DNA of 17,149 nt, from positions 1-17,149 of the IMG/VR virus record IMGVR_UViG_2606217105_000018. One strand, 5' to 3'. Made by a program: the position numbers and the translations under genes. Position 1 is the first letter of the stretch. Each line of letters starts with the position of its first letter. Below the pieces are notes generated by a model. That model was not told the DNA's origin. It saw nothing but the letters and a program-made list of their open reading frames with translations, and did no database searches. The DNA is from a virus (Duplodnaviria; Heunggongvirae; Uroviricota; Caudoviricetes). Positions 1,203 through 17,149 of the stretch are shown here, one piece after another.

Positions 1203-2399
1203 ATGAGCGACTTCGATAGAATTGAGGAATTAGCAGGAGAAGGGGTCTACTCAGGCGTAGAACTCGAAGACGAGATGTCTCAGGATGACAACTCCGACAA
1301 GGAGCCATTCGATACAGATTCAATTTCAATTACTCCTAAGACAGTAGCATTGGATACTGTCTTACGCCGTATAAAAAATAATACAATAAAACTAGCTCCA
1401 GATTTTCAGCGTAGTTATGTTTGGGATAAAAAAAGGAAAAGTCAGTTAATTGAATCAATGATGCTGAAGATTCCATTACCGATGTTTTATGTTTCTGAAG
1501 ATAAAAATGGTGTATGGGAAGTTGTTGATGGATTGCAGCGCCTTACTACTATTAAAGATTTCATTTTAGGACCAGACTATGATGGTAAAGGATTTAAATT
1601 ATCTGGATTAGAGTTCTGGAGCACTCCATATGATGGCTATGATTATTTTAATTTAGAGAAGAATGATGAAAATATAAAAATAATCAATAATATTATGGAG
1701 ACTGAACTATCATTCATCATTATAAACCCTGAAACACCAGAAAAAGTTAAGAGAAATATTTTCAAGAGAATCAACACAGGTGGAATGCGGCTATCAAATC
1801 AAGAGATTAGACATGCGTTATATCAAGGGCGCGCCAGCATACTATTGAAATCCATGGTTGAAAATGATGTTTATAATGATGTTGTAGGTAGAACAGTCAA
1901 AGATGACAGAATGGCTGGTAGAGAGCTTATACTAAGGTATTTAGCTTTTACATTATTCGGCTACAATAATTATTATGGAGATATGGATGATTTTTTATCA
2001 AACACAATGAAAGCTTTAAATAATGAGAAAATTAAAGAACTTCCTTTAATTGATATACCTGAGGATGACGTTATCATTAACACATTCGAATTAGGTTTGC
2101 ACCGAACATATGAGATTTTTGGAGAACATTCTTTTCGAAAATCGTTACCTGGAGATACCAGAAAAACACCCGTTAACAAATCTCTTTTCGAACTATGGTT
2201 GTACTTATTAACAAGAGCTAAAAAAGACTCATATGACGAAATCATCTTGAAAAAAGATATTTTACTGAATGAATATAAAGACCTTCTTCAAAATTATGAG
2301 TTTATGAATTCAATAAGCCGACATGGTGCTGGAGTACAAGGCGCTAAATTTCGTAAAGATTGTCTTTTGGACTTACTAAAGAGAGTAATCAATGCTTGA
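1203..2399 (+). CDS. DUF262 (ParB/Srx-like) domain protein, cargo gene A
   Basis: 398-aa ORF. N-terminal half carries the DUF262 signature as I recall it (FQRSYVW ... IPLPMFYV ... VVDGLQRLTTI ... INTGGMRLSNQEIRHAL). No HNH/DUF1524-like His-Me motif is evident in the C-terminal half. Starts 8 bp after the int stop and overlaps the next gene by 8 bp. Region is strongly AT-rich compared with int. Confidence 0.7.
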   Translation: MSDFDRIEELAGEGVYSGVELEDEMSQDDNSDKEPFDTDSISITPKTVALDTVLRRIKNNTIKLAPDFQRSYVWDKKRKSQLIESMMLKIPLPMFYVSEDKNGVWEVVDGLQRLTTIKDFILGPDYDGKGFKLSGLEFWSTPYDGYDYFNLEKNDENIKIINNIMETELSFIIINPETPEKVKRNIFKRINTGGMRLSNQEIRHALYQGRASILLKSMVENDVYNDVVGRTVKDDRMAGRELILRYLAFTLFGYNNYYGDMDDFLSNTMKALNNEKIKELPLIDIPEDDVIINTFELGLHRTYEIFGEHSFRKSLPGDTRKTPVNKSLFELWLYLLTRAKKDSYDEIILKKDILLNEYKDLLQNYEFMNSISRHGAGVQGAKFRKDCLLDLLKRVINA

Positions 2400-3459
2400 T
2401 GAACTTGTTTTAAAATCATTTAAATCCTTTATCTATTCAAAGTTAGAACTTTCTAACATAACTGTACTCACTGGGCTAAATAGCAGTGGTAAAAGTTCAG
2501 TTCTACAAGCAATAAGAATGTGCAAATTAGTAGATAAAGACCACTCACCATATATTCAAGGATTTGGTGGGTTTACCGATCTCAAATCAAAATTGACCTC
2601 TCAACAAAAGCCTGTGCAGATTCTTCTTTCTAGTAAAGAAATGAAAAATTATCTATATCTATCACTAAGAGAAAATATAAACAAACACAGAACAAGAATA
2701 GATAGGTTTTCGGTAGAATATATCTCAGCTGATAGACATGGTCCATGCGTAACATTACCTATTATGCCTCAGGATATTGATGATATTACTGTTGGTGAAA
2801 AAGGTGAGTACTTTGCAGATTATTACTCAAAATTTGAAAGTGTTATAATACCTGAAAAACTTCGCCATGCTAATTCAACAGGAAATACGTTAAAGCATCA
2901 AATTAATCACTGGATGGGAGAAATATCACCTGGTGTTGATTTGAATTTCTCCGTTACGAAAGAGCAAGATATTTCCCATCTAGGGGTTAATGGTTTCAGA
3001 GCAACTAATACAGGGTTTGGAATAAGTTATTCACTCCCGATCGTGTTAAGTGCATTAGTAATGTCTTCAGAGGCTCCGCTAGATAGCTTCAAGCAGTCAA
3101 AAATGAAAGCATGGCATTCTAATAAAAATAAAATTTTAATAATAGAAAATCCTGAGGCGCATTTGCACCCAAAAGGCCAAACAGCTCTCGGATTATTGTT
3201 AGCTATAGCATCTTCTTGTGGTGTCCAGATAATTGTTGAAACACATAGTGACCATTTTATTGATGGCGTTCGATTAGCAGTCAAAAATGTAGGTGCTACA
3301 CTGGCTCAAAAAAGTATCATTTATTATTTTACGCGTGAGAAAGATAAGGATACAAAAATAGAGAAAATCAGAATAAAAGAAGATGGGAAGCTCACAAGCT
3401 GGCCAGAAGGTTTCTTTGACCAAAGCACAATTAATTTATCTAAATTAGCAAAAAAATAA
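2392..3459 (+). CDS. ABC/AAA_21-type ATPase (DUF3696-like C-terminus), cargo gene B
   Basis: 355-aa ORF. Walker A GLNSSGKSS near the N-terminus; Walker B-like ILIIENPEAHLHP followed by ETHSDHF (H-loop-like) near the C-terminus, typical of small SMC/ABC-like AAA_21 ATPases. The start overlaps the gene A stop (ATGCTTGA). Confidence 0.7.
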   Translation: MLDELVLKSFKSFIYSKLELSNITVLTGLNSSGKSSVLQAIRMCKLVDKDHSPYIQGFGGFTDLKSKLTSQQKPVQILLSSKEMKNYLYLSLRENINKHRTRIDRFSVEYISADRHGPCVTLPIMPQDIDDITVGEKGEYFADYYSKFESVIIPEKLRHANSTGNTLKHQINHWMGEISPGVDLNFSVTKEQDISHLGVNGFRATNTGFGISYSLPIVLSALVMSSEAPLDSFKQSKMKAWHSNKNKILIIENPEAHLHPKGQTALGLLLAIASSCGVQIIVETHSDHFIDGVRLAVKNVGATLAQKSIIYYFTREKDKDTKIEKIRIKEDGKLTSWPEGFFDQSTINLSKLAKK

Positions 3460-3461
3460 AA

Positions 3462-4370
3462 ATGAATATAATCAACTACTTAGATGAAAGATGGGTGGTG
3501 GAGTTATGTGCTAATATTCAAGATAACTCCAAAGAACTTGAGTGTTTCTTAGAATTAGCCGAAGCTGTTAAGAAAAACTGCGGGCGTTCAAGCCTCTCTC
3601 TCACCTCAAATATATGGATAATTAAATGCGGTCACGATAATTTATGTGACATCTTATATGGCCCTTTAACTCAAGATCCTGATTTAAGGGATTACCTTTT
3701 AAGACTGGCAAGAATCATTGATGAAGCTGATAGTTATGAAATAGGCAAACCTGAAACTCACGCATATAACTCAGAAGCTCATGCGGCTTTACACCATAAT
3801 AAGGCAGGAGGCCTTTTATATAAAGAAAATGAAGAATTACCTTGGTGGGATGATAGTTCCATGATATTAATTGACTGCCAAGACAAAATACTTTCTTTAT
3901 TCCGAAAACTTCCTATTTACCACAATATGGGTCTAGACGAATTTGATAGTTATCTAGAGAAATGCTTTCCTAATATATATTTTCTCGATGATGCGAGAGA
4001 TTTTTCTAAAACAGATATTAGCGAAAAAAACGACACAAAACTTTCGGTTATTATAAAGCATTTATCATATCTTAATGATCATGCACAATATGACTACCTT
4101 ATAGATCCAGAACAGTTTGAGCAAAAAGCACTTTCTCATGGTGTAGAACTATCTAGAGAAAGCAGCAGTACAAAACGAAACCAAGATGCAGTTAAAGAAA
4201 GAACAAAAAAAATAAATGAGGAGGCTCTTTTCTTTGAATTACACACCAAACTCAGTAGAGAAAAAGGTAGAATCCATTTTCATATAGGCTCAAGCCTGAG
4301 CGAAAAAATAAATAAATTAAGTGAAGGTCGTCTAATAGTTGGCATTGTGTGCAAACACTTATCAACTTAA
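3462..4370 (+). CDS. hypothetical protein, cargo gene C (no recognisable motif)
   Basis: 302-aa ORF starting 2 bp after the gene B stop; same strand and same low-GC composition as genes A and B. I could not recognise any catalytic motif by eye. Confidence 0.55.
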   Translation: MNIINYLDERWVVELCANIQDNSKELECFLELAEAVKKNCGRSSLSLTSNIWIIKCGHDNLCDILYGPLTQDPDLRDYLLRLARIIDEADSYEIGKPETHAYNSEAHAALHHNKAGGLLYKENEELPWWDDSSMILIDCQDKILSLFRKLPIYHNMGLDEFDSYLEKCFPNIYFLDDARDFSKTDISEKNDTKLSVIIKHLSYLNDHAQYDYLIDPEQFEQKALSHGVELSRESSSTKRNQDAVKERTKKINEEALFFELHTKLSREKGRIHFHIGSSLSEKINKLSEGRLIVGIVCKHLST

Positions 4371-4810
4371 TTAGTACCTCAATATTAAGCTGCCACTTTA
4401 ATCACTCATGATAAGTGGCACCTATTCATTTCAATAAAATTCCCCCTAATAAAAATCAGCACTTTTTTTTCAAATAAATAAATCAGTAACAATATTCACA
4501 TGTATAGCGGCAGAATAATTTTTTCTTAAATATCACACAATCTACATCGTGGGCCGATTTTAATGTAAGAGTACGTGTAAGGATCTAATTTGCAAAGATA
4601 GATTATTGCACGTACACATATAATTCGTTCTAAAATCTATGAGTTGCGATCATGACGCCAATAAGTATGCCTTCACGATGCGAGCCCCCCTCGTCCTGTA
4701 AGTATCCCACATCCCCCTACCTACCAATAACTTGTTGTCACTATTTATAGCTCTCTTGTTTGAATCTCAACAACAACAGTAAAAAATATGCACATTACTG
4801 CTGGCGCGCA

Positions 4811-4829
4811 ATGCTCTCCCCGCCACGCC
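4811..4829 (-). other. cos: cos-like site (P2/P4-type 19-nt cohesive end, about 16/19 match)
   Basis: Reverse complement of ATGCTCTCCCCGCCACGCC is GGCGTGGCGGGGAGAGCAT, compared with the P2/P4 cohesive end GGCGAGGCGGGGAAAGCAC as I remember it. It lies between the int-proximal cargo and psu, where cos sits in a P4 prophage. Confidence 0.4.
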
Positions 4830-4930
4830 TGCCCGCTTAAGAGGTCGCTTTTAATGCAGGTGCATGAACCAACTCAAGCCGCGCCGGTACTGGTGTTGCG
4901 TGGGATAAAAAATACGGGGATTTGCATGCA

Positions 4931-4963
4931 AAACCATGCACCTTATGGATGCATGGTTTTTTT
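4931..4963. terminator. stem-loop with T-tract, probable bidirectional terminator downstream of psu
   Basis: AAACCATGCA (4931-4940) pairs with TGCATGGTTT (4950-4959) around a 9-nt loop, followed by a run of 7 T on the plus strand. On the minus strand the same stem is followed by TTTTG about 40 nt after the psu stop. Confidence 0.45.
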
Positions 4964-5002
4964 CGGGAAAAATAGCGGAATTTTCGGGGATTTTTTTGCG
5001 TG

Positions 5003-5569
5003 CTACCGTGCGGCCAGTTCTGCACGTCGGCGGGGGTAAATCAGGTTCTGTGCCGGGGTGAATTTCTCGCGATTATCATCCCGCGAAGCCGCATCAGGCC
5101 TGAATCCGATGGCCGTTAAAATATCGTTGTCCTGCACGGAATAATTAATTTTTTTACCTGCGGCCAGCCACACCGACAGGGCTTCACGCAGATAATCAAC
5201 CGAGTGCTGCATGGCGCTCTGTTTTACTGCGGGAAGCTGTTCGTTATACCCCATCAGCTCAGGTGCCAGCGTGGCGGCCAGCTCCGCGCCGTGCTGCTGC
5301 ATAAATTCATGGAGCCGGTTGCGGATACTGATGTGCTGCACTTCCTCATGTGAGCGGATATAGCGACCGGCGGCCTGATTAATCTCCCATTTTTTCACGT
5401 CGATATCGTCGCGCAAATCCTGCATTCTGCTCGGGATTTGTTCGTCACCGGCAAGGAGCTGTTCACGGTATTCCCGTTCAAGGTCTGCCAGTTCGGCTTT
5501 ACGTTTCAGCCAGGTATTTTTGTTCGTCTGACAGGCCTCAAAGGCCTGCTGTATGGTCACAGTGGTCAC
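5003..5569 (-). CDS. psu: Psu, polarity suppression protein (P4-type, capsid decoration / Rho antagonist)
   Basis: 188-aa ORF with a GTG start preceded by AGGAG. Blocks QQAF..CQ.NK..W, VNQAAGRYIRSHE.VQHISIR.RL..FMQQHG..LAA.LAPELMGY, INYS.QD.DILT.IGFRPD.AS.DD.REKFTPAQN match my recollection of P4 Psu. Sits directly after delta on the same strand. Confidence 0.85.
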   Translation of the reverse strand: MTTVTIQQAFEACQTNKNTWLKRKAELADLEREYREQLLAGDEQIPSRMQDLRDDIDVKKWEINQAAGRYIRSHEEVQHISIRNRLHEFMQQHGAELAATLAPELMGYNEQLPAVKQSAMQHSVDYLREALSVWLAAGKKINYSVQDNDILTAIGFRPDAASRDDNREKFTPAQNLIYPRRRAELAAR

Positions 5570-5584: not shown

Positions 5585-5824
5585 TTAATGCCGGAACGGC
5601 GAACTGTAGCAGCCCTGCACCTTACGCGGCGGTGGTGGCGCCACCGGCGCGGGGTCGGTTTTCTCCGGGGCGGCACGTATCACACCGTCAACCGACTCGA
5701 TGGTGCGGAAAGTGGCCGAACATTCGATATTGGTACACTGGTGATAACGCTGTTTGACGTTTTCCGACAGATAACGGCTGGTACGGACGTGCGCGGTCTT
5801 TTTGCAGAACGGACAGTGAAACAT
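5585..5824 (-). CDS. delta: Delta/Ogr-family zinc-finger late-gene activator
   Basis: 79-aa ORF MFHCPFC..TAHVRTSRY......RYHQC.N..CSATF with the C-x2-C ... C-x4-C Ogr/Delta zinc-finger pattern. Lies between sid and psu as in P4. Confidence 0.85.
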   Translation of the reverse strand: MFHCPFCKKTAHVRTSRYLSENVKQRYHQCTNIECSATFRTIESVDGVIRAAPEKTDPAPVAPPPPRKVQGCYSSPFRH

Positions 5825-5827
5825 GAT

Positions 5828-6573
5828 TCAGCCCTCTGCCTGTTCGTGGTCTTTTGCGGCCAGTTCAGCGGCAAGCTTCATCCGTCTGGCCGGGCTTCTT
5901 AACAGCGCCATATCAACCCCGGTTATGACCGGGCGATTCATGCCCGTTACGGACAGAACCGGCTCCTGCTCCATATCGAAATGATACAGGGCTGACTGCA
6001 GATTCAGGGCATCGCCCAGCTCGCGGGTCACGGTCGCACGCGGCGAGGTTTCTCCGCTCATTTCCAGCGACCGTATACGCAACAGAAAGGCACGTAACAG
6101 TGCGGGGCTGATACCGGCCAGCACTTTCTTCCATTCGCTGTTGGCGTAAGTGGTGAATGCTTTTTCGTGGGCGCTGATATAAGCCGTACCGGAGGAGCAT
6201 GCGCCAAGCATGGCGAGGCCTTTGTCTTTCTCCAGCTCGGTAATCAGACCGGTGAACTCATCAGCCAGTTCTCGGCTGGCGATACGTTTACTGTGTTCAG
6301 CTTTCAGTTCAGGAGTGAGGTTGCCGCGCAGAGTTCGAAAGCGGCTGCGCCAGTCCTGTTCGGCCTGTGCACTTTCACTGAGCGCGGTCTGTCGTTCCTG
6401 CTCACAACGCTGAATGGAAGCCTCAATGTCGCTGAGTTTACCCATGCTGGCCGTGTGTGCGTCTTTTGCTTCGTTAAGTGCGGCCAGCGCACCGGCAATA
6501 AGTTGTTCCGCGCCTTCATCCTGTTTACTGATAACGGTCTGCATGGCTTTGATAATGAGTTCGGGTTTCATGT
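5828..6573 (-). CDS. sid: Sid-like external scaffold (capsid size determination) protein
   Basis: Ala/Glu-rich, probably coiled-coil, protein immediately upstream of delta-psu on the same strand. I prefer the ATG at 6573 (MKPELI..., GGAG about 8 nt upstream) over the longer ORF starting at 6637, because a TGT-N12-ACA dyad at 6644-6661 would otherwise fall inside the coding region. Confidence 0.65.
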
Positions 6574-6643
6574 TCAGGCTCTCCGTGTGTTCAACCTGAA
6601 ATGATTCTGACGCCTCCTGCACAACAACACGATTCATTGCCGT

Positions 6644-6842: not shown

Positions 6843-6924
6843 CTCCTGTTTTGCTCTGGTTATAGCATTTAGACTTTATTTTGATTAAAAATGAAAAATA
6901 TATAACTAAAAGCAATAGAAATTG

Positions 6925-6984
6925 CTGCATTGTAATGCAGTGATTTGCATATGTTTGCCAGCGTTTGCCATTGTTTGCCAGAGC
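6925..6984. promoter_or_regulatory. palindrome TGCATTGTAATGCA followed by three direct GTTTGCCA repeats upstream of the vis-like gene
   Basis: The sequence TGCATTGTAATGCAgtgatttgcatatGTTTGCCAgcGTTTGCCAttGTTTGCCAgag can be read directly. It lies about 130-180 bp upstream of the 7109 start, so it is a candidate operator for the early/late switch. Confidence 0.3.
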
Positions 6985-7108
6985 GAAAAGTCAATGTTTG
7001 TTTCCCCGAAAATCTCACATGACCTGAGGAAAAATATAGACATAATAAGGAGCTACCCGAAGCCGGACGGACACGACCGGCACTGTATGGACTTTGTGAG
7101 GTAGCCCG

Positions 7109-7375
7109 ATGCACACTGCTTTTTCTTCCCCGTCTTCTGCCCCTGCCGCGCCGCTGATGCCGGTTTCTGATACCGTTCACGAGCGCTTTATCCGTCTGCC
7201 CGAAGTGATGCATCTGTGCGGCCTGTCCCGCTCGACCATTTACGACCTCATCAGCCGGGAAGCCTTCCCGAAACAAATCTCCCTCGGCGGAAAAAATGTG
7301 GCGTGGGCGCAGTCTGAAATCACTGCATGGATGGCGGATCGCATTGCCGAACGTAACCGGGGCTATGACGCATGA
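7109..7375 (+). CDS. alpA: AlpA/Vis-family excisionase-like transcriptional regulator
   Basis: 88-aa ORF. Core [55 protein letters not shown] is a typical AlpA-family helix-turn-helix. GAGG lies about 9 nt before the ATG at 7109; an alternative start at 7157 is possible. Confidence 0.8.
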
Positions 7376-7728
7376 TGATGACCATTCAGCAAACAGCCCC
7401 TTTTTCTGGCTTGCTTCTTTTCGCCGTTTCCAGGTATAGTTTTCCCGCTGTCGCAAAATCGGCAGCCGGGCGTAGGAACCCGAGTTACTCAATGGCGACA
7501 CCGGACGCGCCATGCGTCTTTTTTTACGTCGTTGCTCAGGCACACCCATTTTTCGGGCTGTGGTGTTTACACCTTAGCCCCTGTCAGATAATGGTGATCC
7601 GGGCGGGGCAGCCTTCGGGCTGGCCGGTATTCATTGAGGCCGGTATTCCTACCCCCGTTCGGGTCACCACCCATGAGCGTAGGAACTCCGGTGGTGGCAA
7701 TAACCGCTACTCAATGGAGGTTGCCACT
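7376..7728 (+). ncRNA. candidate P4-type immunity RNA / leader region with repeated complementary boxes
   Basis: GCGTAGGAAC occurs at 7471-7480 and 7676-7685; TACTCAATGG at 7486-7495 and 7709-7718; the complementary GTTCCTAC-like box (ggtattcctaccc) at about 7640-7652. This resembles the seqA/seqB/seqC arrangement of the P4 cI RNA system. Exact RNA ends are not determinable by eye. Confidence 0.25.
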
Positions 7729-7923
7729 ATGGCTACGACCCTCACCCCGTCACACCCGCAATTTGTCTTTGTGTTTGCTGCTGTTCGTCGCGCAGACCGT
7801 ACCCCTCGTATTTGTATGCTCCGCACCGTTGCCGGTGATGAGCACGCCGCACGCCTTTCTCTCGTTCGCGATTACGTTCTCTCGTTTGCTGGCCGTCTGC
7901 CGGTTGCGGAGGTTCGCGCATGA
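7729..7923 (+). CDS. small hypothetical protein of the satellite early operon
   Basis: ATG at 7729 with GGAGG 8 nt upstream; 64 codons ([16 protein letters not shown]...). Its stop overlaps the next start (ATGA). This is the only protein-like part of the long 7372..7923 ORF. Confidence 0.3.
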
Positions 7924-8147: not shown

Positions 8148-8464
8148 AACAGCCATTACCGCCCGTATTACGCGCCGCGCTGTATCGTCGCGCCGTGGCC
8201 TGTGCATGGCTGACCCTGTGCGAACGCCAGCACCGCTACCCGCACCTCACCCTCGACGCGCTGGAAAGCGCCATTGCCGCCGAGCTGGAGGGCTTTTACC
8301 TGCGCCAGCACGGCGAGGAAAAAGGTCGCCAGATTGCCTGTGCACTGCTGGAAGATTTAATGGAAGCCGGACCACTCAAAGCCGCGCCGTCGCTGTCCTT
8401 TTTCGGGCTGGCCGTGATGGATGAGCTTTGCGCCCGTCATATCACCGCACCGGCACTGCACTGA
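8144..8464 (+). CDS. hypothetical protein, satellite early operon
   Basis: 106-aa ORF, start overlapping the previous stop (ATGA), ending 15 bp before the alpha start. Confidence 0.5.
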
Positions 8465-8478
8465 GGGAGAAAATAACT

Positions 8479-10812
8479 ATGAAAATGAACGTAACGGAAA
8501 CCGTAAAACAGGCGTGCGGTCACTGGCCGCGCATTCTCCCTGCGCTGGGTGTGAAGGTGATTAAAAACCGCCATCAGGCCTGTCCGGTGTGTGGCGGCTC
8601 TGACCGTTTCCGCTTTGACGATAAAGAAGGGCGCGGGACGTGGTTCTGCAATCAGTGTGGCGCAGGTGACGGGCTTAAGCTGGTAGAGAAAGTGTTTGGC
8701 GTGACCCCGTCAGAAGCTGCCGGGAAGGTGAACGCCGTGACCGGCAATCTGTCGCCGGTTGCCCCGGAAGTGATTGCGGCCGCAGAGGCTGAAACCGATG
8801 CCGATCGCAAAGCGGCGGCCGAGCTGGCCGCGAAACTGATGGAGAAAACCCGACCGGCCACCGGCAACGCCTACCTCACCCGCAAGGGCTTCCCCGCTCT
8901 GGAATGTCTGACGCTCACCGTCATGCATAAAACCGGCGGCGTGACGTTCCGCGCCGGGGATGTGGTTGTCCCGCTGTATGACGATACCGTCGCACTGGTT
9001 AACCTTCAGCTTATCAATGCTGACGGTCTCAAACGCACCCTGAAAGGCGGTCAGGTCAAAGGGGCATGTCATATCATCGAAGGGAAAAAACAGGCCGGAA
9101 AACGCCTGTGGATTGCAGAGGGTTATGCGACCGCACTCACCGTGCATCACCTGACCGGGGAAACCGTCATGGTGGCGCTGTCCTCCGTGAACCTCCTTTC
9201 TCTGGCGAGCCTTGCCCGTCAGAAATATCCGGCCTGTCAGATTGTGCTCGCTGCCGACCGTGACCTTAACGGCGACGGCCAGAGTAAAGCCGCTGCGGCC
9301 GCAGATGCCTGTGAGGGCATTGTTGCCCTGCCGCCGGTGTTCGGTGACTGGAATGATGCGTTTATACAGTACGGCGAGGAGGCCACGCGCAAGACTATTT
9401 ATGACGCCATCCGGCCACCGGCGCAAAGCCCATTCGACACCATGAGCGAGGCGGAATTTACCGCCATGAGCGCCAGCGACAAGGCTTTGCGGGTGCATGA
9501 GCATTACGGTGAAGCGCTGGCGGTGGATGCGAACGGCCAGCTCCTGTCCCGCTATGAAAACGGCATCTGGAAAAATATCCCTGCCGCCACTTTTTCACGG
9601 AATGTGGCTGATTTATTCCAGCGCTTACGCGCCCCGTTCTCGTCCGGGAAAATTGCCTCGGTGGTGGAGACCCTGAAACTGATTATTCCGCAGCAGGATA
9701 CACCGGCGCGCCGTCTGATTGGCTTTCGCAACGGGGTACTCGATACTCAAAGCGGCGTATTCAGCCCGCACCACAAATCGCACTGGCTGCGCACATTGTG
9801 CGATGTGGATTTCACCCCGCCGGTGGAGGGGGAAACGCTGGAGACGCACGCGCCGAACTTCTGGCGCTGGCTCGACCGTGCAGCCGGTAAAAATCCACAA
9901 AAACGCGACGTGATTCTGGCTGCGCTGTTTATGGTGCTGGCGAACCGTTACGACTGGCAGCTCTTTCTCGAAGTGACCGGTCCCGGCGGGAGTGGCAAAA
10001 GTATTCTGGCTGAAATCGCGACCCTGCTCGCCGGAGAGGATAACGCCACGTCAGCCGATATCGACACACTGGAAGACCCGCGCAAGCGTGCCTCCCTGAT
10101 TGGCTTCTCGCTTATCCGTCTGCCTGACCAGGAAAAATGGAGCGGTGACGGCGCAGGACTCAAGGCCATCACCGGCGGCGATGCAGTTTCAGTTGACCCG
10201 AAATACCAGAATCCGTACTCAACGCATATTCCGGCGGTGATTCTGGCCGTGAACAATAACCCCATGCGCTTCACCGACCGCAGCGGCGGTGTGTCACGCC
10301 GCCGGGTGATTATTCACTTCCCGGAACAGATTGCCCCGGAGGAACGCGACCCGCAGCTCAGGGATAAAATTGCGCGCGAGCTGGCCGTCATTGTGCGCCA
10401 GCTTATGCAGAAATTCAGCGACCCGATGACCGCACGCGCACTGCTTCAGTCGCAGCAGAACTCCGACGAGGCGCTCAGCATTAAGCGCGATGCTGACCCG
10501 ACATTTGATTTTTGCGGCTATCTGGAAATGCTCCCGCAGACCAACGGGATGTTTATGGGGAATGCCAGCATCATCCCGCGGAATTATCGTAAATATCTCT
10601 ATCACGCGTATCTGGCCTATATGGAGGCCAACGGCTACAGAAACGTGCTCAGCCTGAAAATGTTCGGGCTGGGGCTGCCCATGATGCTGAAAGAGTACGG
10701 CCTGAATTATGAGAAGCGGCACACCAAGCAGGGGATACAGACCAATCTGTCGCTGAAAGAGGAAAGCTACGGCGACTGGCTGCCGAAGTGCGACGAACCC
10801 GCAGCAACATAA
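8479..10812 (+). CDS. alpha: Alpha-type primase-helicase (zinc-binding primase, TOPRIM, D5-like helicase)
   Basis: N-terminal CPVCGG...FCNQCG zinc-binding motif, a primase region, and Walker A GPGGSGKS in the C-terminal helicase part. ATG at 8479 has a strong GAGGGAGA Shine-Dalgarno and gives 777 aa, the size I recall for P4 alpha. The ORF-track start at 8428 lacks a ribosome-binding site and overlaps the preceding gene. Confidence 0.9.
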   Translation: MKMNVTETVKQACGHWPRILPALGVKVIKNRHQACPVCGGSDRFRFDDKEGRGTWFCNQCGAGDGLKLVEKVFGVTPSEAAGKVNAVTGNLSPVAPEVIAAAEAETDADRKAAAELAAKLMEKTRPATGNAYLTRKGFPALECLTLTVMHKTGGVTFRAGDVVVPLYDDTVALVNLQLINADGLKRTLKGGQVKGACHIIEGKKQAGKRLWIAEGYATALTVHHLTGETVMVALSSVNLLSLASLARQKYPACQIVLAADRDLNGDGQSKAAAAADACEGIVALPPVFGDWNDAFIQYGEEATRKTIYDAIRPPAQSPFDTMSEAEFTAMSASDKALRVHEHYGEALAVDANGQLLSRYENGIWKNIPAATFSRNVADLFQRLRAPFSSGKIASVVETLKLIIPQQDTPARRLIGFRNGVLDTQSGVFSPHHKSHWLRTLCDVDFTPPVEGETLETHAPNFWRWLDRAAGKNPQKRDVILAALFMVLANRYDWQLFLEVTGPGGSGKSILAEIATLLAGEDNATSADIDTLEDPRKRASLIGFSLIRLPDQEKWSGDGAGLKAITGGDAVSVDPKYQNPYSTHIPAVILAVNNNPMRFTDRSGGVSRRRVIIHFPEQIAPEERDPQLRDKIARELAVIVRQLMQKFSDPMTARALLQSQQNSDEALSIKRDADPTFDFCGYLEMLPQTNGMFMGNASIIPRNYRKYLYHAYLAYMEANGYRNVLSLKMFGLGLPMMLKEYGLNYEKRHTKQGIQTNLSLKEESYGDWLPKCDEPAAT

Positions 10813-11559: not shown

Positions 11560-12774
11560 ATGTATATGTCGGTTTTTCATAACTGGCTGCTTGATATCGC
11601 AAGCGGGAATTACTTTATCTACATCAAACGCCTTTCTGCAAACGACACAGGCGCAACAGGTGGCCATCAGGTCGGACTTTATATCCCCTCAAATATCGTT
11701 GAAAAGCTTTTTCCATCTATCAATCATACTCGCGAACTGAACCCTTCAGTCTTCCTTACTGCGCATGTATCATCCCATGATTGCCCTGATACCCAAGCAC
11801 GCGCAATTTATTACAACAACCGTTATTTTGGTAAGACCCGAAACGAAAAAAGAATTACGCGCTGGGGGAGAGGAAGTCCATTACAGAACCCTGAAAATAC
11901 AGGAGCCCTCACAATTCTTGCTTTCAGGTTAAACGAACAGAACACTGACTGTTCCGAGGTAGATATATGGGTCTGCGTCAATCCCGATGAAGAGGATATC
12001 ATCGAGTCTGCTATTGGCGAAATCATACCTGGAACCCTAATTTCCGGCCCTGCCGGACAAATTTTGGGCGGATTGTCTCTTCAGCAAACTCCAGTAAATC
12101 ATAAATATGTTATTCCTGAAGACTGGAAGAAGCGTTTTCCTTCTGGAAACGAAATTATTCAATATGCTGCTGGCCATTATGCTAAAAACTCCAAGGATCC
12201 AGATGAGCAACTGATTGACCGTCGGCGTGTCGAGTATGATATTTTTCTACTCGTCGAGGAATTACATGTTCTTGATATTATTAAGAAAGGATTCGATTCT
12301 GTAGATGAGTTTATTGCATTAGCCAACTCTGTCAGTAATCGACGTAAATCAAGGGCAGGCAAATCACTTGAACTTCACCTAGAGAAGCTTTTTATCGAGC
12401 ACGGACTACGGCATTTCTCCACTCAGGCAGTTACTGAAGGTAATAAAAAACCAGATTTCCTGTTTCCTTCAGCAGAGGCATATCATAACGTTGAATTTCC
12501 TGTAGAAAACTTACGTATGCTGGCAGTAAAGACCACCTGCAAAGATCGCTGGCGTCAGATACTGAATGAAGCAGATAAAATCCATCAGGTACATTTATTT
12601 ACACTGCAAGAAGGTGTTTCTTCAGCACAATACCGAGAAATGAAAGATGCGGGTGTCAGACTCGTTGTACCATCAACTTTACATAAAAAATACCCAGAAG
12701 CAGTTAGAGAAGAATTAATAACGCTCGGAGCATTCATTACTGAGCTGATAGAGCTTTACGCTGAACTATCATAG
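11560..12774 (+). CDS. ecoRIIR: Type IIE restriction endonuclease, EcoRII family (CCWGG)
   Basis: ORF of 404 aa from 11560, or 402 aa from the ATG at 11566 which has better AAGGGA spacing. The sequence matches my recollection of R.EcoRII; size and convergent pairing with a Dcm/M.EcoRII-like methyltransferase support the call. Confidence 0.8.
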   Translation: MYMSVFHNWLLDIASGNYFIYIKRLSANDTGATGGHQVGLYIPSNIVEKLFPSINHTRELNPSVFLTAHVSSHDCPDTQARAIYYNNRYFGKTRNEKRITRWGRGSPLQNPENTGALTILAFRLNEQNTDCSEVDIWVCVNPDEEDIIESAIGEIIPGTLISGPAGQILGGLSLQQTPVNHKYVIPEDWKKRFPSGNEIIQYAAGHYAKNSKDPDEQLIDRRRVEYDIFLLVEELHVLDIIKKGFDSVDEFIALANSVSNRRKSRAGKSLELHLEKLFIEHGLRHFSTQAVTEGNKKPDFLFPSAEAYHNVEFPVENLRMLAVKTTCKDRWRQILNEADKIHQVHLFTLQEGVSSAQYREMKDAGVRLVVPSTLHKKYPEAVREELITLGAFITELIELYAELS

Positions 12775-12779
12775 GCTGA

Positions 12780-12802
12780 CTCCCGGCTTAAAAGGCCGGG
12801 AG
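12780..12802. terminator. inverted repeat between the convergent R and M genes (weak bidirectional terminator candidate)
   Basis: CTCCCGGC-ttaaaag-GCCGGGAG lies between the R stop (12774) and the M stop (12809). No clear T-tract on either side. Confidence 0.3.
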
Positions 12803-12808
12803 ATGTTC

Positions 12809-14242
12809 TCAAGGCTGCCCAGTCTTACCAGCATCAGCAGAAACAGCTTTGAGGATATAGGGTTCCAGAAGTCTGGCAACAGCTTCAAATACTGGCACCA
12901 CAACTGAGTTACCGAACTGCCGATATGACTGAGTATCTGAAACCGGAATACGGAATGGTTTCCCTCCAGGTTTTTCAAATCCCATAAGGCGTGCGCACTC
13001 TCGGGGAGTCAGCCTGCGTGGTCGACGAGCCTGATTACTCTCATTCATAAAGTCAGCCTCTCCCGTTGCCATATCCCAACCACGATCAATAAGAATTTCT
13101 GATCCGTCTTTGTGATATCTGGCAGAAAGTGTGCGTGCAATGCTTTCCTTATTCTCAGGATTGACCAACCCAAAGCCAAAACCATTCCCCTTGGCTGCAT
13201 GCTTTTTGGCGTAGTTATAAAGGTACTCCCATAGTTTTGGCGTAAGTATATATTTACTGTCGACTACAGGCTCCAGCAATTCACCAAATGATGGGCGGTG
13301 TTCCGGATAAAAACGACTGATATCACGCAAGGTAAACCCCTTGTGAATATTCAGATCTCGTCTAAATCCGACCAGAACAATACGTTCACGATGCTGAGGC
13401 AAAAAATGCTTCCCATCGATAATCTTTGGATCGTTTTTTCCCATTTCTGCAGCATCGGCAACTTCGTAGCCCAGCTCGTCAAGGGTCTCCATAATGACTT
13501 TGAAAGTTTTACCCTTATCATGGCTCTTCAGATTTTTGACATTTTCCAGCACAAAAATTGCCGGTTTTTTTGCTCGTATAATACGTGCCACGTCAAAAAA
13601 AAGTGTTCCTTGTGCTTCACATTCAAAACCATGCGCACGACCAAGTGAGTTTTTCTTACTAACACCAGCAAGGCTAAATGGCTGGCACGGGAACCCCGCA
13701 AGAAGCACATCATGATCCGGCACATGCTCATCAATATATGCATAAGCATCCGTTTCCAATACATCGGTTTTATCACTCAGCGTGACTTCCCGAATATCGA
13801 GATTGAATTTATGCACCTGTTCATCGTTAAACCAGTTGGCCTTGTATGTACGCACAGCATCTTTATTCCATTCACTGGTAAAAACACACTGGCCTCCAAT
13901 GGCCTCAAAACCTTTCCGTATCCCTCCAATTCCAGCAAATAAGTCAATGAAGCGGAAAGCATATTCCGGATGGTTTGCAGGTGGTTCTGGTAGCATCTTA
14001 CGCAGAAGAGACTCTTCTACTGAAGTCAACGATTTTGGTAAACACTTGCCATTAATCCAGCGGTTAATGGTTTCACGGCTCCACTCATTTTTTCCGACTT
14101 TTCTCAGTAATTCAGCCACATACTTCTGATCATAGATTTCCAGCACTTTCTCGATAAGCTTTTTATCATTTTCCTGTCGCAGCTTTTCTTCCGCCTCGGC
14201 TTCCTTCAGCAGATGCTGTGCCAACACTTCAAATTCAGACAT
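12809..14242 (-). CDS. ecoRIIM: C5-cytosine DNA methyltransferase, Dcm/M.EcoRII family (CCWGG)
   Basis: Motif [18 protein letters not shown], the catalytic [11 protein letters not shown] (PC motif) and ENVKNL (motif VI). Starting at the internal ATG 14242 (MSEFEVL..., GGAGG 7 nt upstream) gives 477 aa, the size I recall for M.EcoRII. The ORF-track start at 14284 has no ribosome-binding site. Confidence 0.9.
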
Positions 14243-14603
14243 AATTCCTCCAAGGGGTCTAATGGGTGAAACTTTATCACTCATTCAACCCAGAAGGAAA
14301 TGTTTTATCTGGATATTTAAACAGTGACTACAACGTAATCTAGCACTGGTGATGCTTTGTTAGGCATAGAGAATCATTCTATATACGACTAATGACAGAA
14401 AAACAGCAGACAAGTAGTTTGTTCATAAATTAACGCATACTATGTGTCTACGGTTTTCGAGACCGGTCCAATCATCAAACGAAACATAAAATTAGCTCAC
14501 ATTATGAGGAAAAGTATCTTTTTTGTACTATGTAAATTCAAAGGCTTAGCCTCATTTCTCCGATGGTTTTCTCAACACTACTGGTTGTGAGCCCTTGCAA
14601 TGA

Positions 14604-15422
<819 letters not shown>

Positions 15423-15491: not shown

Positions 15492-16076
15492 TTACACGGT
15501 GTCTGGTTCTTCTGGCCACTCAATATCCGGTGCAGTTGATGTATCAACACGGTTCAGCAACACCCGATACTTTTTCCAGGCTTCCAGCAATGAGGTTTCT
15601 TCCTCCGTTGCGATTTCCAGATCTACAGCATCCTGAAGTGGCGCAATATGCTCACTGGCTACCTGCATCAGGCTGTTTTTTGTTTCTTCTGCCTCCCGGA
15701 TCCGGAACAGTTTTTCTGCTTCCGTATCCTTCACCCAGGCTGTGCCGTTCCACTTCTGATATTCCCCTCCCGGCGACAACCAGGTAACATTTTCCGGTAA
15801 CGGACCGAGTTCAGAAATAAATAACGCGTCGCCGGAAGCCACGTCATAAACCGTTTTACCCCGATGGTCTTCAACGAGATGCCACGATGCCTCATCACTG
15901 TTGAAAACAGCCACGAAGCCTGCCGGAATATCTGGTGGTGCAATATCGGTACTGTTTGCTGGCAGACCTGTATGAGGCGGAATATATGCGTCACCTTCAC
16001 CAATAAATTCATTAGTTCCGGCCAGCAGATTATAAATTTTTATGGTCCGTGCTTGTTCACTCATTCTGAATGCCAT
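15492..16076 (-). CDS. tfa: tail fibre assembly protein (Tfa family chaperone)
   Basis: 194-aa [50 protein letters not shown]..., a typical lambdoid Tfa N-terminus. Its ATG overlaps the upstream tail-fibre stop (TAATG). Confidence 0.85.
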
Positions 16077-17149
16077 TATGCAAGCCTCACAATATAGTTA
16101 AATGCGATGTTTTTGACGGTGTTTTCCGCGTTACCAGCAGCGTTAACGGTGATGGTGTGTCCATGTGAACCAATCGCAACGGAGTGCGTATGAGCACCAA
16201 TACCGACAGTATGCGCGTGTGCACCTGCAGATGCTGCTGTGCCGGACAGTGAATGGCTATGATTACCATCTGTACTGGTATTCGCTAACCACCCCGTAGA
16301 CATACCTACTGAGCCTTGTACACCCCAGGTATTTTGACCTGAGCTTGTATAACCATATTGATAAGTATCTTTAAAAACACTGGGGTTAAATCGACGGCCA
16401 TCTCTATGGCTGTGATTACCAGCTGCATTCGTGCTGCCACTTAAACTATGGGTATGCGCACCAGTGTTATTCGTGGATTTAGTGCCGTAATCAAACGACG
16501 ATGTGGTTTTCGTCCCCAAATCCGTACTGGATGCGCTGGCGCTGTGGGTGTGCGATTTAATACCGTCCTGTTCCTGAGACAAGCAGACCTCGCTGCTGCG
16601 CTGGCCTGTTCAGTGGCTTCGCCAGCCTTCGTTGTGGCTGTTGAAGCAGACGATGCGGCACTTTCTGCCGATTTTCCGGCGGCGGTGGCACTGGCTGAGG
16701 CCTGCCCGGCACTTGTTGACGCGGCACTGGCAGACGACGCAGCCGCTGTTTTTGAGCCTGCCGCAGCCGAGGCGCTCTGTCCCGCTGCCGTTTCAGAAGA
16801 CCTGGCGTTTGTCTCAGACGTCTTTGCCGCCTTCGCGGAATTGCCTGCCGCCGTTGCCGAGGAAGCGGCACTACTGGCGCTTGATGATGCGTTCGTTTCT
16901 GATGATTTCGCTGCCTCTTTTGAGGCCGCCGCATCCCGGGCTGAGGTGGCTGCTTCTGACGCCTTCGTGGTCGCGGCGGATGCAGAAGTGGCTGCTGATT
17001 GTTGTGACGCTGCCGCATTCGTTTCTGACGTTTTCGCCGCAGCGGCACTGGTAGCTGCCGCGCTTTTTGAGGACTCTGCAGCGGCAGCACTTTTTGATGC
17101 TTCAGTGGCCTTTGTTGATGCCGTTCCTGCGCTGGAAGACGCTGACTGA
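16076..17149 (-). pseudogene. stf: side tail fibre protein, partial at window edge and apparently frameshifted
   Basis: The C-terminal 168 codons (16076-16582) carry H-x-H repeats ([28 protein letters not shown]) and end in [15 protein letters not shown]. The region 16583-17149 is open in a different minus-strand frame that encodes a Ser/Ala/Thr-rich repeat with recurring KTSETNA units, typical of a tail-fibre N-terminal shaft. The two frames overlap only between about 16460 and 16611. Confidence 0.5.

Follow-up and report, generated by a model that had tools for sequence, protein, structure and literature searches.

Menshen is an anti-phage system described in Millman et al. 2022, with an archetype from Solibacillus silvestris StLB046; phage protection, against T2, T4, T6 and Fado, is on record for the S. 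silvestris system only (both as cited in PMC12065111). Li et al. 2025 (PMC12065111) described three DUF262 motifs in the first protein, NsnA (QRxxxW, DGxQR and FxxxN), and an 'EN' variant of Walker B in the second, NsnB. They divided the archetypal third protein, NsnC, into an 'inactive PIN' and a 'PB-BECR1' domain, with YafQ as the best BECR match, and noted that PB-BECR1 has an H-R-H triad where YafQ has H-D-H; the same study lists 35 inPIN families. In their AF3 model the DUF3696 tails of NsnB clamp the PIN-like domain of NsnC, and an effector role of the third gene was already proposed in that work. As for genomic location, the int-psu hotspot of P4-like satellites is a reservoir of anti-phage systems (Rousset et al. 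[quoted passage not shown]

We analyzed a stretch of viral DNA of 17,149 nucleotides (hereafter the window). Three co-directional and tightly packed genes encode, in this order, a DUF262 protein, an ABC ATPase with DUF3696, and a protein of about 300 residues:

1203-2399, + strand: nsnA (gene A), DUF262/ParB-like protein (GmrSD_N), predicted DNA sensor/NTPase; Pfam GmrSD_N at 3.8e-28
2392-3459, + strand: nsnB (gene B), ABC-type ATPase, predicted transducer holding NsnC; Pfam AAA_15 at 7.4e-21, and AAA_21
3462-4370, + strand: nsnC (gene C), ATG start, 302 aa, two-domain protein and predicted RNase effector

The PADLOC models of NsnA (8.6e-123) and NsnB (1.6e-99) match the first two proteins over essentially their full length, and the NsnC model PDLC03908 matches residues 1-302 of the third over 298 profile positions (E 2.5e-124). 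Since all three genes are recognized at full length, we assign the operon, from these sequence matches, to Menshen, and to Type I of the system because NsnA has the DUF262 motifs and lacks an extra N-terminal sensor domain. All three of these motifs are in place (QRSYVW at 69, DGLQR at 109, FKRIN at 187). In NsnB we found Walker A (GLNSSGKS at 28), Walker B in its unusual 'EN' form (ILIIEN at 248), ETHS at 283, WPEGFF at 337, and a DUF3696 tail at residues 308-352 (Pfam, 3.2e-15). It is close to certain that gene C is nsnC. Four other PADLOC NsnC models also match it, at E 1e-7 to 1e-35 and mainly over residues 132-302, which suggests homology of this part to the C-terminal domain of the S. 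silvestris NsnC. Neither the system nor this type of hotspot is new, and the operon is an ordinary instance of both.

Gene C is a real ORF. With the base composition of the operon (A 0.37, T 0.29), the expected frequency of stop codons is 0.079 and the chance of finding 302 consecutive sense codons is about 1.4e-11; none of the other five frames over the gene stays open for more than 65 codons. An earlier note on this DNA had described gene C as tightly coupled to the ATPase gene and similar to it in composition, and both points hold. The ATG at 3462 lies 2 nt past the TAA stop of gene B, which ends at 3459, and the G+C content is 0.31-0.36 over positions 1500-4500, where the three operon genes lie, versus 0.55-0.62 in the satellite core. 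The ends of genes A and B share 8 nt (2392-2399), and nsnA starts 8 nt past the stop codon of the integrase gene on the same strand (1192-1205). Scans for promoters and terminators around the operon gave scores no better than those of shuffled sequence, and no promoter-like site above chance was seen upstream of nsnA, in this position 8 nt after int. Transcripts of int may extend into the Menshen operon.

The operon had also been taken for satellite cargo, and the surrounding features bear this out. The window is a P4-like satellite, in which the following elements place Menshen in the int-psu cargo hotspot:

1-1194, + strand: P4-type tyrosine integrase (phrog_1, E 7.6e-71), left border of the hotspot
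4811-4829, + strand: cos-like site of P2/P4 type, ATGCTCTCCCCGCCACGCC, in the non-coding stretch of 632 nt (4371-5002) from nsnC to psu
5003-5569, - strand: psu (phrog_6366 Psu, 6.6e-91), right border of the int-psu hotspot
5585-5824, - strand: Delta (PHROGs)
5828-6637, - strand: Sid-like protein (PHROGs)
7447-7524, + strand: isrK (Rfam, 70.9 bits)
7587-7674, + strand: C4 antisense (CI) RNA (Rfam, 81.3 bits), region of the P4-type immunity RNA
8428-10812: alpha primase (PHROGs)

The site at 4811-4829 shares 16 of its 19 bases with the P2/P4 cohesive-end sequence; none of 200 shuffles matched. Its position between nsnC and psu is as expected for a cos-adjacent P4 hotspot. Two long ORFs that run over the isrK/C4 region, at 6869-7549 (- strand) and 7372-7923 (+ strand), are probably not genes.

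The window carries a second cargo module (11560-14284) downstream of the primase, made of two convergent genes:

11560-12774, + strand: EcoRII-like restriction endonuclease (phrog_36646)
12809-14284, - strand: Dcm-type cytosine methyltransferase (phrog_116)

Four sibling satellites with an identical Menshen operon (L005-L008, listed below) have an autotransporter gene directly after the primase instead. Hence, the EcoRII-like/Dcm restriction-modification pair is variable, and it represents either additional cargo or a piece of the adjacent island. Between this pair and the tail-fibre genes, the gene at 14649-15422 (+ strand) encodes a protein of 257 aa that matches phrog_5356 (unknown function) over its full length (E 5.7e-142). 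Positions 15492-17149, at the right end of the window, resemble the tail-fibre region of another prophage adjoining the satellite. An Rfam match to IS009 (229 bits, 15535-15733, - strand) lies wholly within the tail-fibre-assembly gene at 15492-16076 (- strand, phrog_105).

The co-occurrence of gene C with the A/B pair had been raised as a point on which its role could be challenged. We found nsnC directly after the GmrSD_N/DUF262 and AAA_15/DUF3696 genes in every context examined, so a refutation based on its absence fails. The A-B-C order is kept in each of the following:

The window: P4-like satellite, order kept
L001 and L002: Burkholderia MAG and Pseudomonas fluorescens, order kept
L003 and L004: Polynucleobacter, beside Tn7-like tnsA/B/C-tniQ genes, order kept
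L005-L009: E. coli, order kept
L010 and L011: Pantoea, satellite-like element at smpB, order kept
L012: Cocleimonas, order kept
L013: metagenome contig, order kept
L014: Burkholderia glumae plasmid, order kept

The first two of these loci (L001 and L002) are those obtained from a scan of genome contigs with a single peptide pattern. All five E. coli loci have nsnC in the same satellite. Four of these (L005-L008) carry the satellite, with its integrase gene, next to smpB, which places it at the tmRNA gene. In one Polynucleobacter locus (L003, 5985-10457), the Menshen operon is immediately upstream of tnsA, tnsB, tniB/tnsC, and tniQ, and it may travel there with a Tn7-like transposon instead of a satellite.

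The three proteins differ in their conservation. Across the loci that share the operon, identity is 58% for NsnA, 46-48% for NsnB, and only 31-34% for NsnC. Within NsnC, the N-terminal half evolves faster than the C-terminal half (18-33% versus 36-54% identity), and the protein of the B. glumae plasmid is similar over residues 185-300 only. This domain-wise divergence agrees with the domain polymorphism described in Li et al. (PMC12065111).

The exact NsnC sequence (for example, EEU9496450.1) is present in 162 contigs labelled E. coli, and the exact sequences of the three operon proteins in 160-180 contigs, many of them labelled E. coli. The cluster of NsnC at 90% identity also includes proteins of Salmonella, Citrobacter, Klebsiella, and Cronobacter, all annotated as 'hypothetical protein'. 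A megablast search with the operon (1203-4370) against 5,426 complete E. coli RefSeq genomes gave no match, and neither did tblastn against phage records. The megablast result, set against the presence in contigs, may mean that the element is confined to draft assemblies or that the search missed it.

The earlier note had called gene C motif-less, with no nuclease, transmembrane, or other recognizable signature. This stands for most of the libraries that we searched. Scans with NCBIfam and PHROGs gave no match, the Pfam scan gave only a sub-threshold match to RGS (E 0.047), and a profile search yielded no significant match among PDB sequences (best match YpeB, E 0.13). [quoted passage not shown] No transmembrane segment was found in the product, whose highest Kyte-Doolittle mean over 19 residues is 0.8, so that the absence of such a signature is confirmed and a transmembrane effector is rejected. 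The description does not hold with regard to the PADLOC NsnC match and the conserved C-terminal motifs presented below, and the lack of a nuclease signature, true of the sequence libraries, gives way at the level of the fold to an RNase-toxin-like domain.

Word-based searches retrieved 26 relatives of NsnC. With an exhaustive profile search, the relatives amounted to 426 clusters (50% identity), almost all of 290-330 aa, and the more distant ones align over residues 130-302 only. An AlphaFold2 model of NsnC built on 25 sequences reached a pLDDT of 90.7 and a pTM of 0.88. The full model gave no match to the PDB in Foldseek at E <= 0.001. The structure prediction that the note had suggested returned the architecture of NsnC, PIN-like followed by RelE/YafQ-like, with invariant His/Lys/Arg/His in the C-terminal domain:

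3462-4019, + strand: NsnC residues 1-186, alpha/beta domain of PIN-like (VapC-like) type, acidic (pI 4.6), fast-evolving
4020-4367, + strand: NsnC residues 187-302, basic (pI 8.7) helix-plus-sheet domain of RelE/YafQ/YoeB (BECR) type

The best structural matches of the C-terminal domain within the RelE superfamily are the RNases YafQ, YoeB, and RelE, with YafQ at the top. We thus predict an RNase-toxin-like domain in NsnC, with moderate support at the level of the fold. An hhalign comparison of the profile of this domain with E. coli YafQ gave no alignment.

To describe conservation, we used an alignment of 139 NsnC representatives that are pairwise less than 50% identical. Nearly all of the invariant or near-invariant residues fall within the C-terminal domain, where they form the motifs HLSYLND (200-206), LSxESxxT (230-237), R247, H261-x-K263, G-R270-I-H272-F, and H299. 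Conservation is complete for H261 and K263 (100%), and very high for R270 (99%), R247 and H299 (both 98%), S231 (97%), E233 (95%), D206 (94%), T237 (92%), and H272 (91%). By description, H261, R270, and H299 (98-100% conserved) appear to fit the H-R-H triad of PB-BECR1. Their spacing resembles that of H50, H63, and H87 in YafQ. The candidate catalytic residues of the predicted RNase are E233, R247, H261, K263, R270, H272, and H299. A variant of NsnC of 161 aa (P0072) has an internal deletion that joins approximately residue 100 to residue 243, and has lost most of the PIN-like domain as well as the HLSYLND and LSxES motifs; it is probably encoded by a decayed copy of nsnC.

In the N-terminal domain the only standouts are R148 (95%) and the acidic residues D8, E9, and D77 (76-81%; codons at 3483-3488 for D8/E9 and at 3690-3692 for D77). 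D8 is at the end of strand 1, the place of the first catalytic Asp in PIN domains. Across the aligned sequences, no acidic position is conserved at 70% or more in residues 10-76 or 78-186. As there is no conserved acidic residue in residues 90-186, the D-E-D-D site of PIN domains is not maintained, and the PIN-like half is probably not a nuclease, to judge from the aligned sequences. We presume that residues 1-186 are a docking and/or recognition module, in which candidate roles of D8, E9, and D77 are structural, in docking to NsnB, or in metal binding.

Fold, conservation, and synteny make an RNase effector the best-supported reading of NsnC. It is a prediction, one that agrees with Li et al. 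2025 (PMC12065111) and upholds the suggestion of the earlier note that gene C is the effector of the operon. NsnA, a DUF262/ParB-like NTPase with a DNA-binding domain, would sense the incoming phage DNA. An oligomer of the NsnB ABC ATPase would hold NsnC, with the DUF3696 tails clamping its catalytically dead PIN-like domain. Upon activation, the binding or hydrolysis of ATP would release NsnC or switch it on allosterically, and its RelE/YafQ-like domain would then cut RNA, arrest translation, and in this way block phage production. A search of the literature found no experiment on NsnC, be it on RNase activity or on toxicity. We regard the explanation as a whole, i.e., the nsnC of a Type I Menshen in a P4-like satellite encoding an RNase effector held by NsnB, as likely.

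The same data bear on other readings. The very fast evolution of the N-terminal half is what one expects of a recognition module, and it would suit a non-catalytic adaptor or specificity factor that tunes phage recognition and leaves the damage to the ParB/DUF262-like domain of NsnA or to a host nuclease. The moderate fold support for an RNase domain, and the lack of matches to nuclease families of Pfam, point the same way. We nevertheless find such an adaptor unlikely. The grouping of His, Lys, Arg, and Glu residues that are invariant in the 139 diverged sequences is typical of the active site of a metal-independent RNase and not of a binding surface, and NsnA lacks the DUF1524 nuclease that is the partner of DUF262 in GmrSD and SspE. 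Furthermore, other variants of Menshen swap the C-terminal position for Toprim, PLD, or other BECR domains (PMC12065111). Quite unlikely, too, is that the RelE-fold domain is a toxin of another sort, one that poisons a DNA enzyme in the manner of ParE or that acts on DNA, given that its top matches in the superfamily (YafQ, YoeB, and RelE) are RNases and that the conserved His, Arg, Lys, and Glu are as in YafQ and YoeB. ParE toxins are not known to have such catalytic residues.

Cargo hotspots stack unrelated genes, so in principle gene C could be an independent toxin-like or accessory gene that merely happens to neighbour genes A and B in this element. This is very improbable and is effectively refuted by synteny: the gene begins right after the stop codon of gene B, the A-B-C order is kept in all of the unrelated contexts examined, including the Tn7-like locus and the Burkholderia plasmid, and no ORF of the size of an antitoxin is adjacent. 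An independent toxin-antitoxin module was ruled out by the absent antitoxin ORF together with the conserved synteny. Finally, we consider it improbable that the satellite-borne subfamily of NsnC is more than a simple RelE-like mRNA interferase that is held and then released. In that improbable case, D8, E9, and D77 could mark a second functional site, for binding of metal or RNA or for residual nuclease activity, and the RNase could be narrow in its choice of target, for example a particular tRNA or phage transcript. If true, the target of NsnC would be tuned to spare the P2-type helper phage, and the satellite would carry a defence that is selective and not abortive.

The value of the locus as a discovery is small, as this is a standard Menshen recognized by PADLOC and its protein is already deposited. 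With it, Menshen joins the systems documented for the int-psu hotspot of P4. The satellite-borne Menshen of enterobacteria is a convenient system, native to E. coli, for work on the predicted NsnB-restrained RNase, and for its NsnC there are a confident model and a small set of candidate catalytic residues.

Compared with the archetypal NsnC, the protein of the satellite is alike in most respects. Both are of about 300 aa and encoded by the third gene, after those for DUF262 and ABC-ATPase/DUF3696 proteins; both have a PIN-like N-terminal domain without the catalytic quartet and a C-terminal domain with YafQ as best match among solved structures; and both match PADLOC NsnC models. The conserved His-Arg-His set of the satellite protein appears to correspond to that of the archetype. 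They differ in that the satellite protein belongs to another sequence subfamily, with PDLC03908 as best model and found mainly in Enterobacterales, and in that it rides a P4-like satellite, a context unmentioned in PMC12065111. With respect to the PIN-domain RNases such as VapC, NsnC does not keep the four conserved acidic residues (D8 and D77 are conserved at approximately 80%).

The likeness of NsnC to the RNases of type II toxin-antitoxin systems (YafQ, YoeB, RelE, and HigB) is in the fold only, with no sequence similarity. Unlike them, NsnC has no Pfam match to a toxin and no adjacent antitoxin or small partner ORF; its RelE-type domain forms one protein with a PIN-like domain, and its gene is coupled to that of an ATPase. 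Presumably, the NsnB ATPase takes over the inhibitory role of the antitoxin. In this the system resembles PARIS (AriA/AriB), Septu (PtuA/PtuB), and Gabija (GajA), where an ATPase oligomer is likewise predicted to hold or gate a nuclease effector (PMC12065111). NsnB matches the models of the AriA, GajA, and Old ATPases, and PARIS also occupies P4 hotspots (PMC9122126). Unlike these systems, Menshen has a separate DUF262 sensor protein, and its effector here is predicted to be a metal-independent domain of RNase fold instead of a Toprim or HNH DNase.
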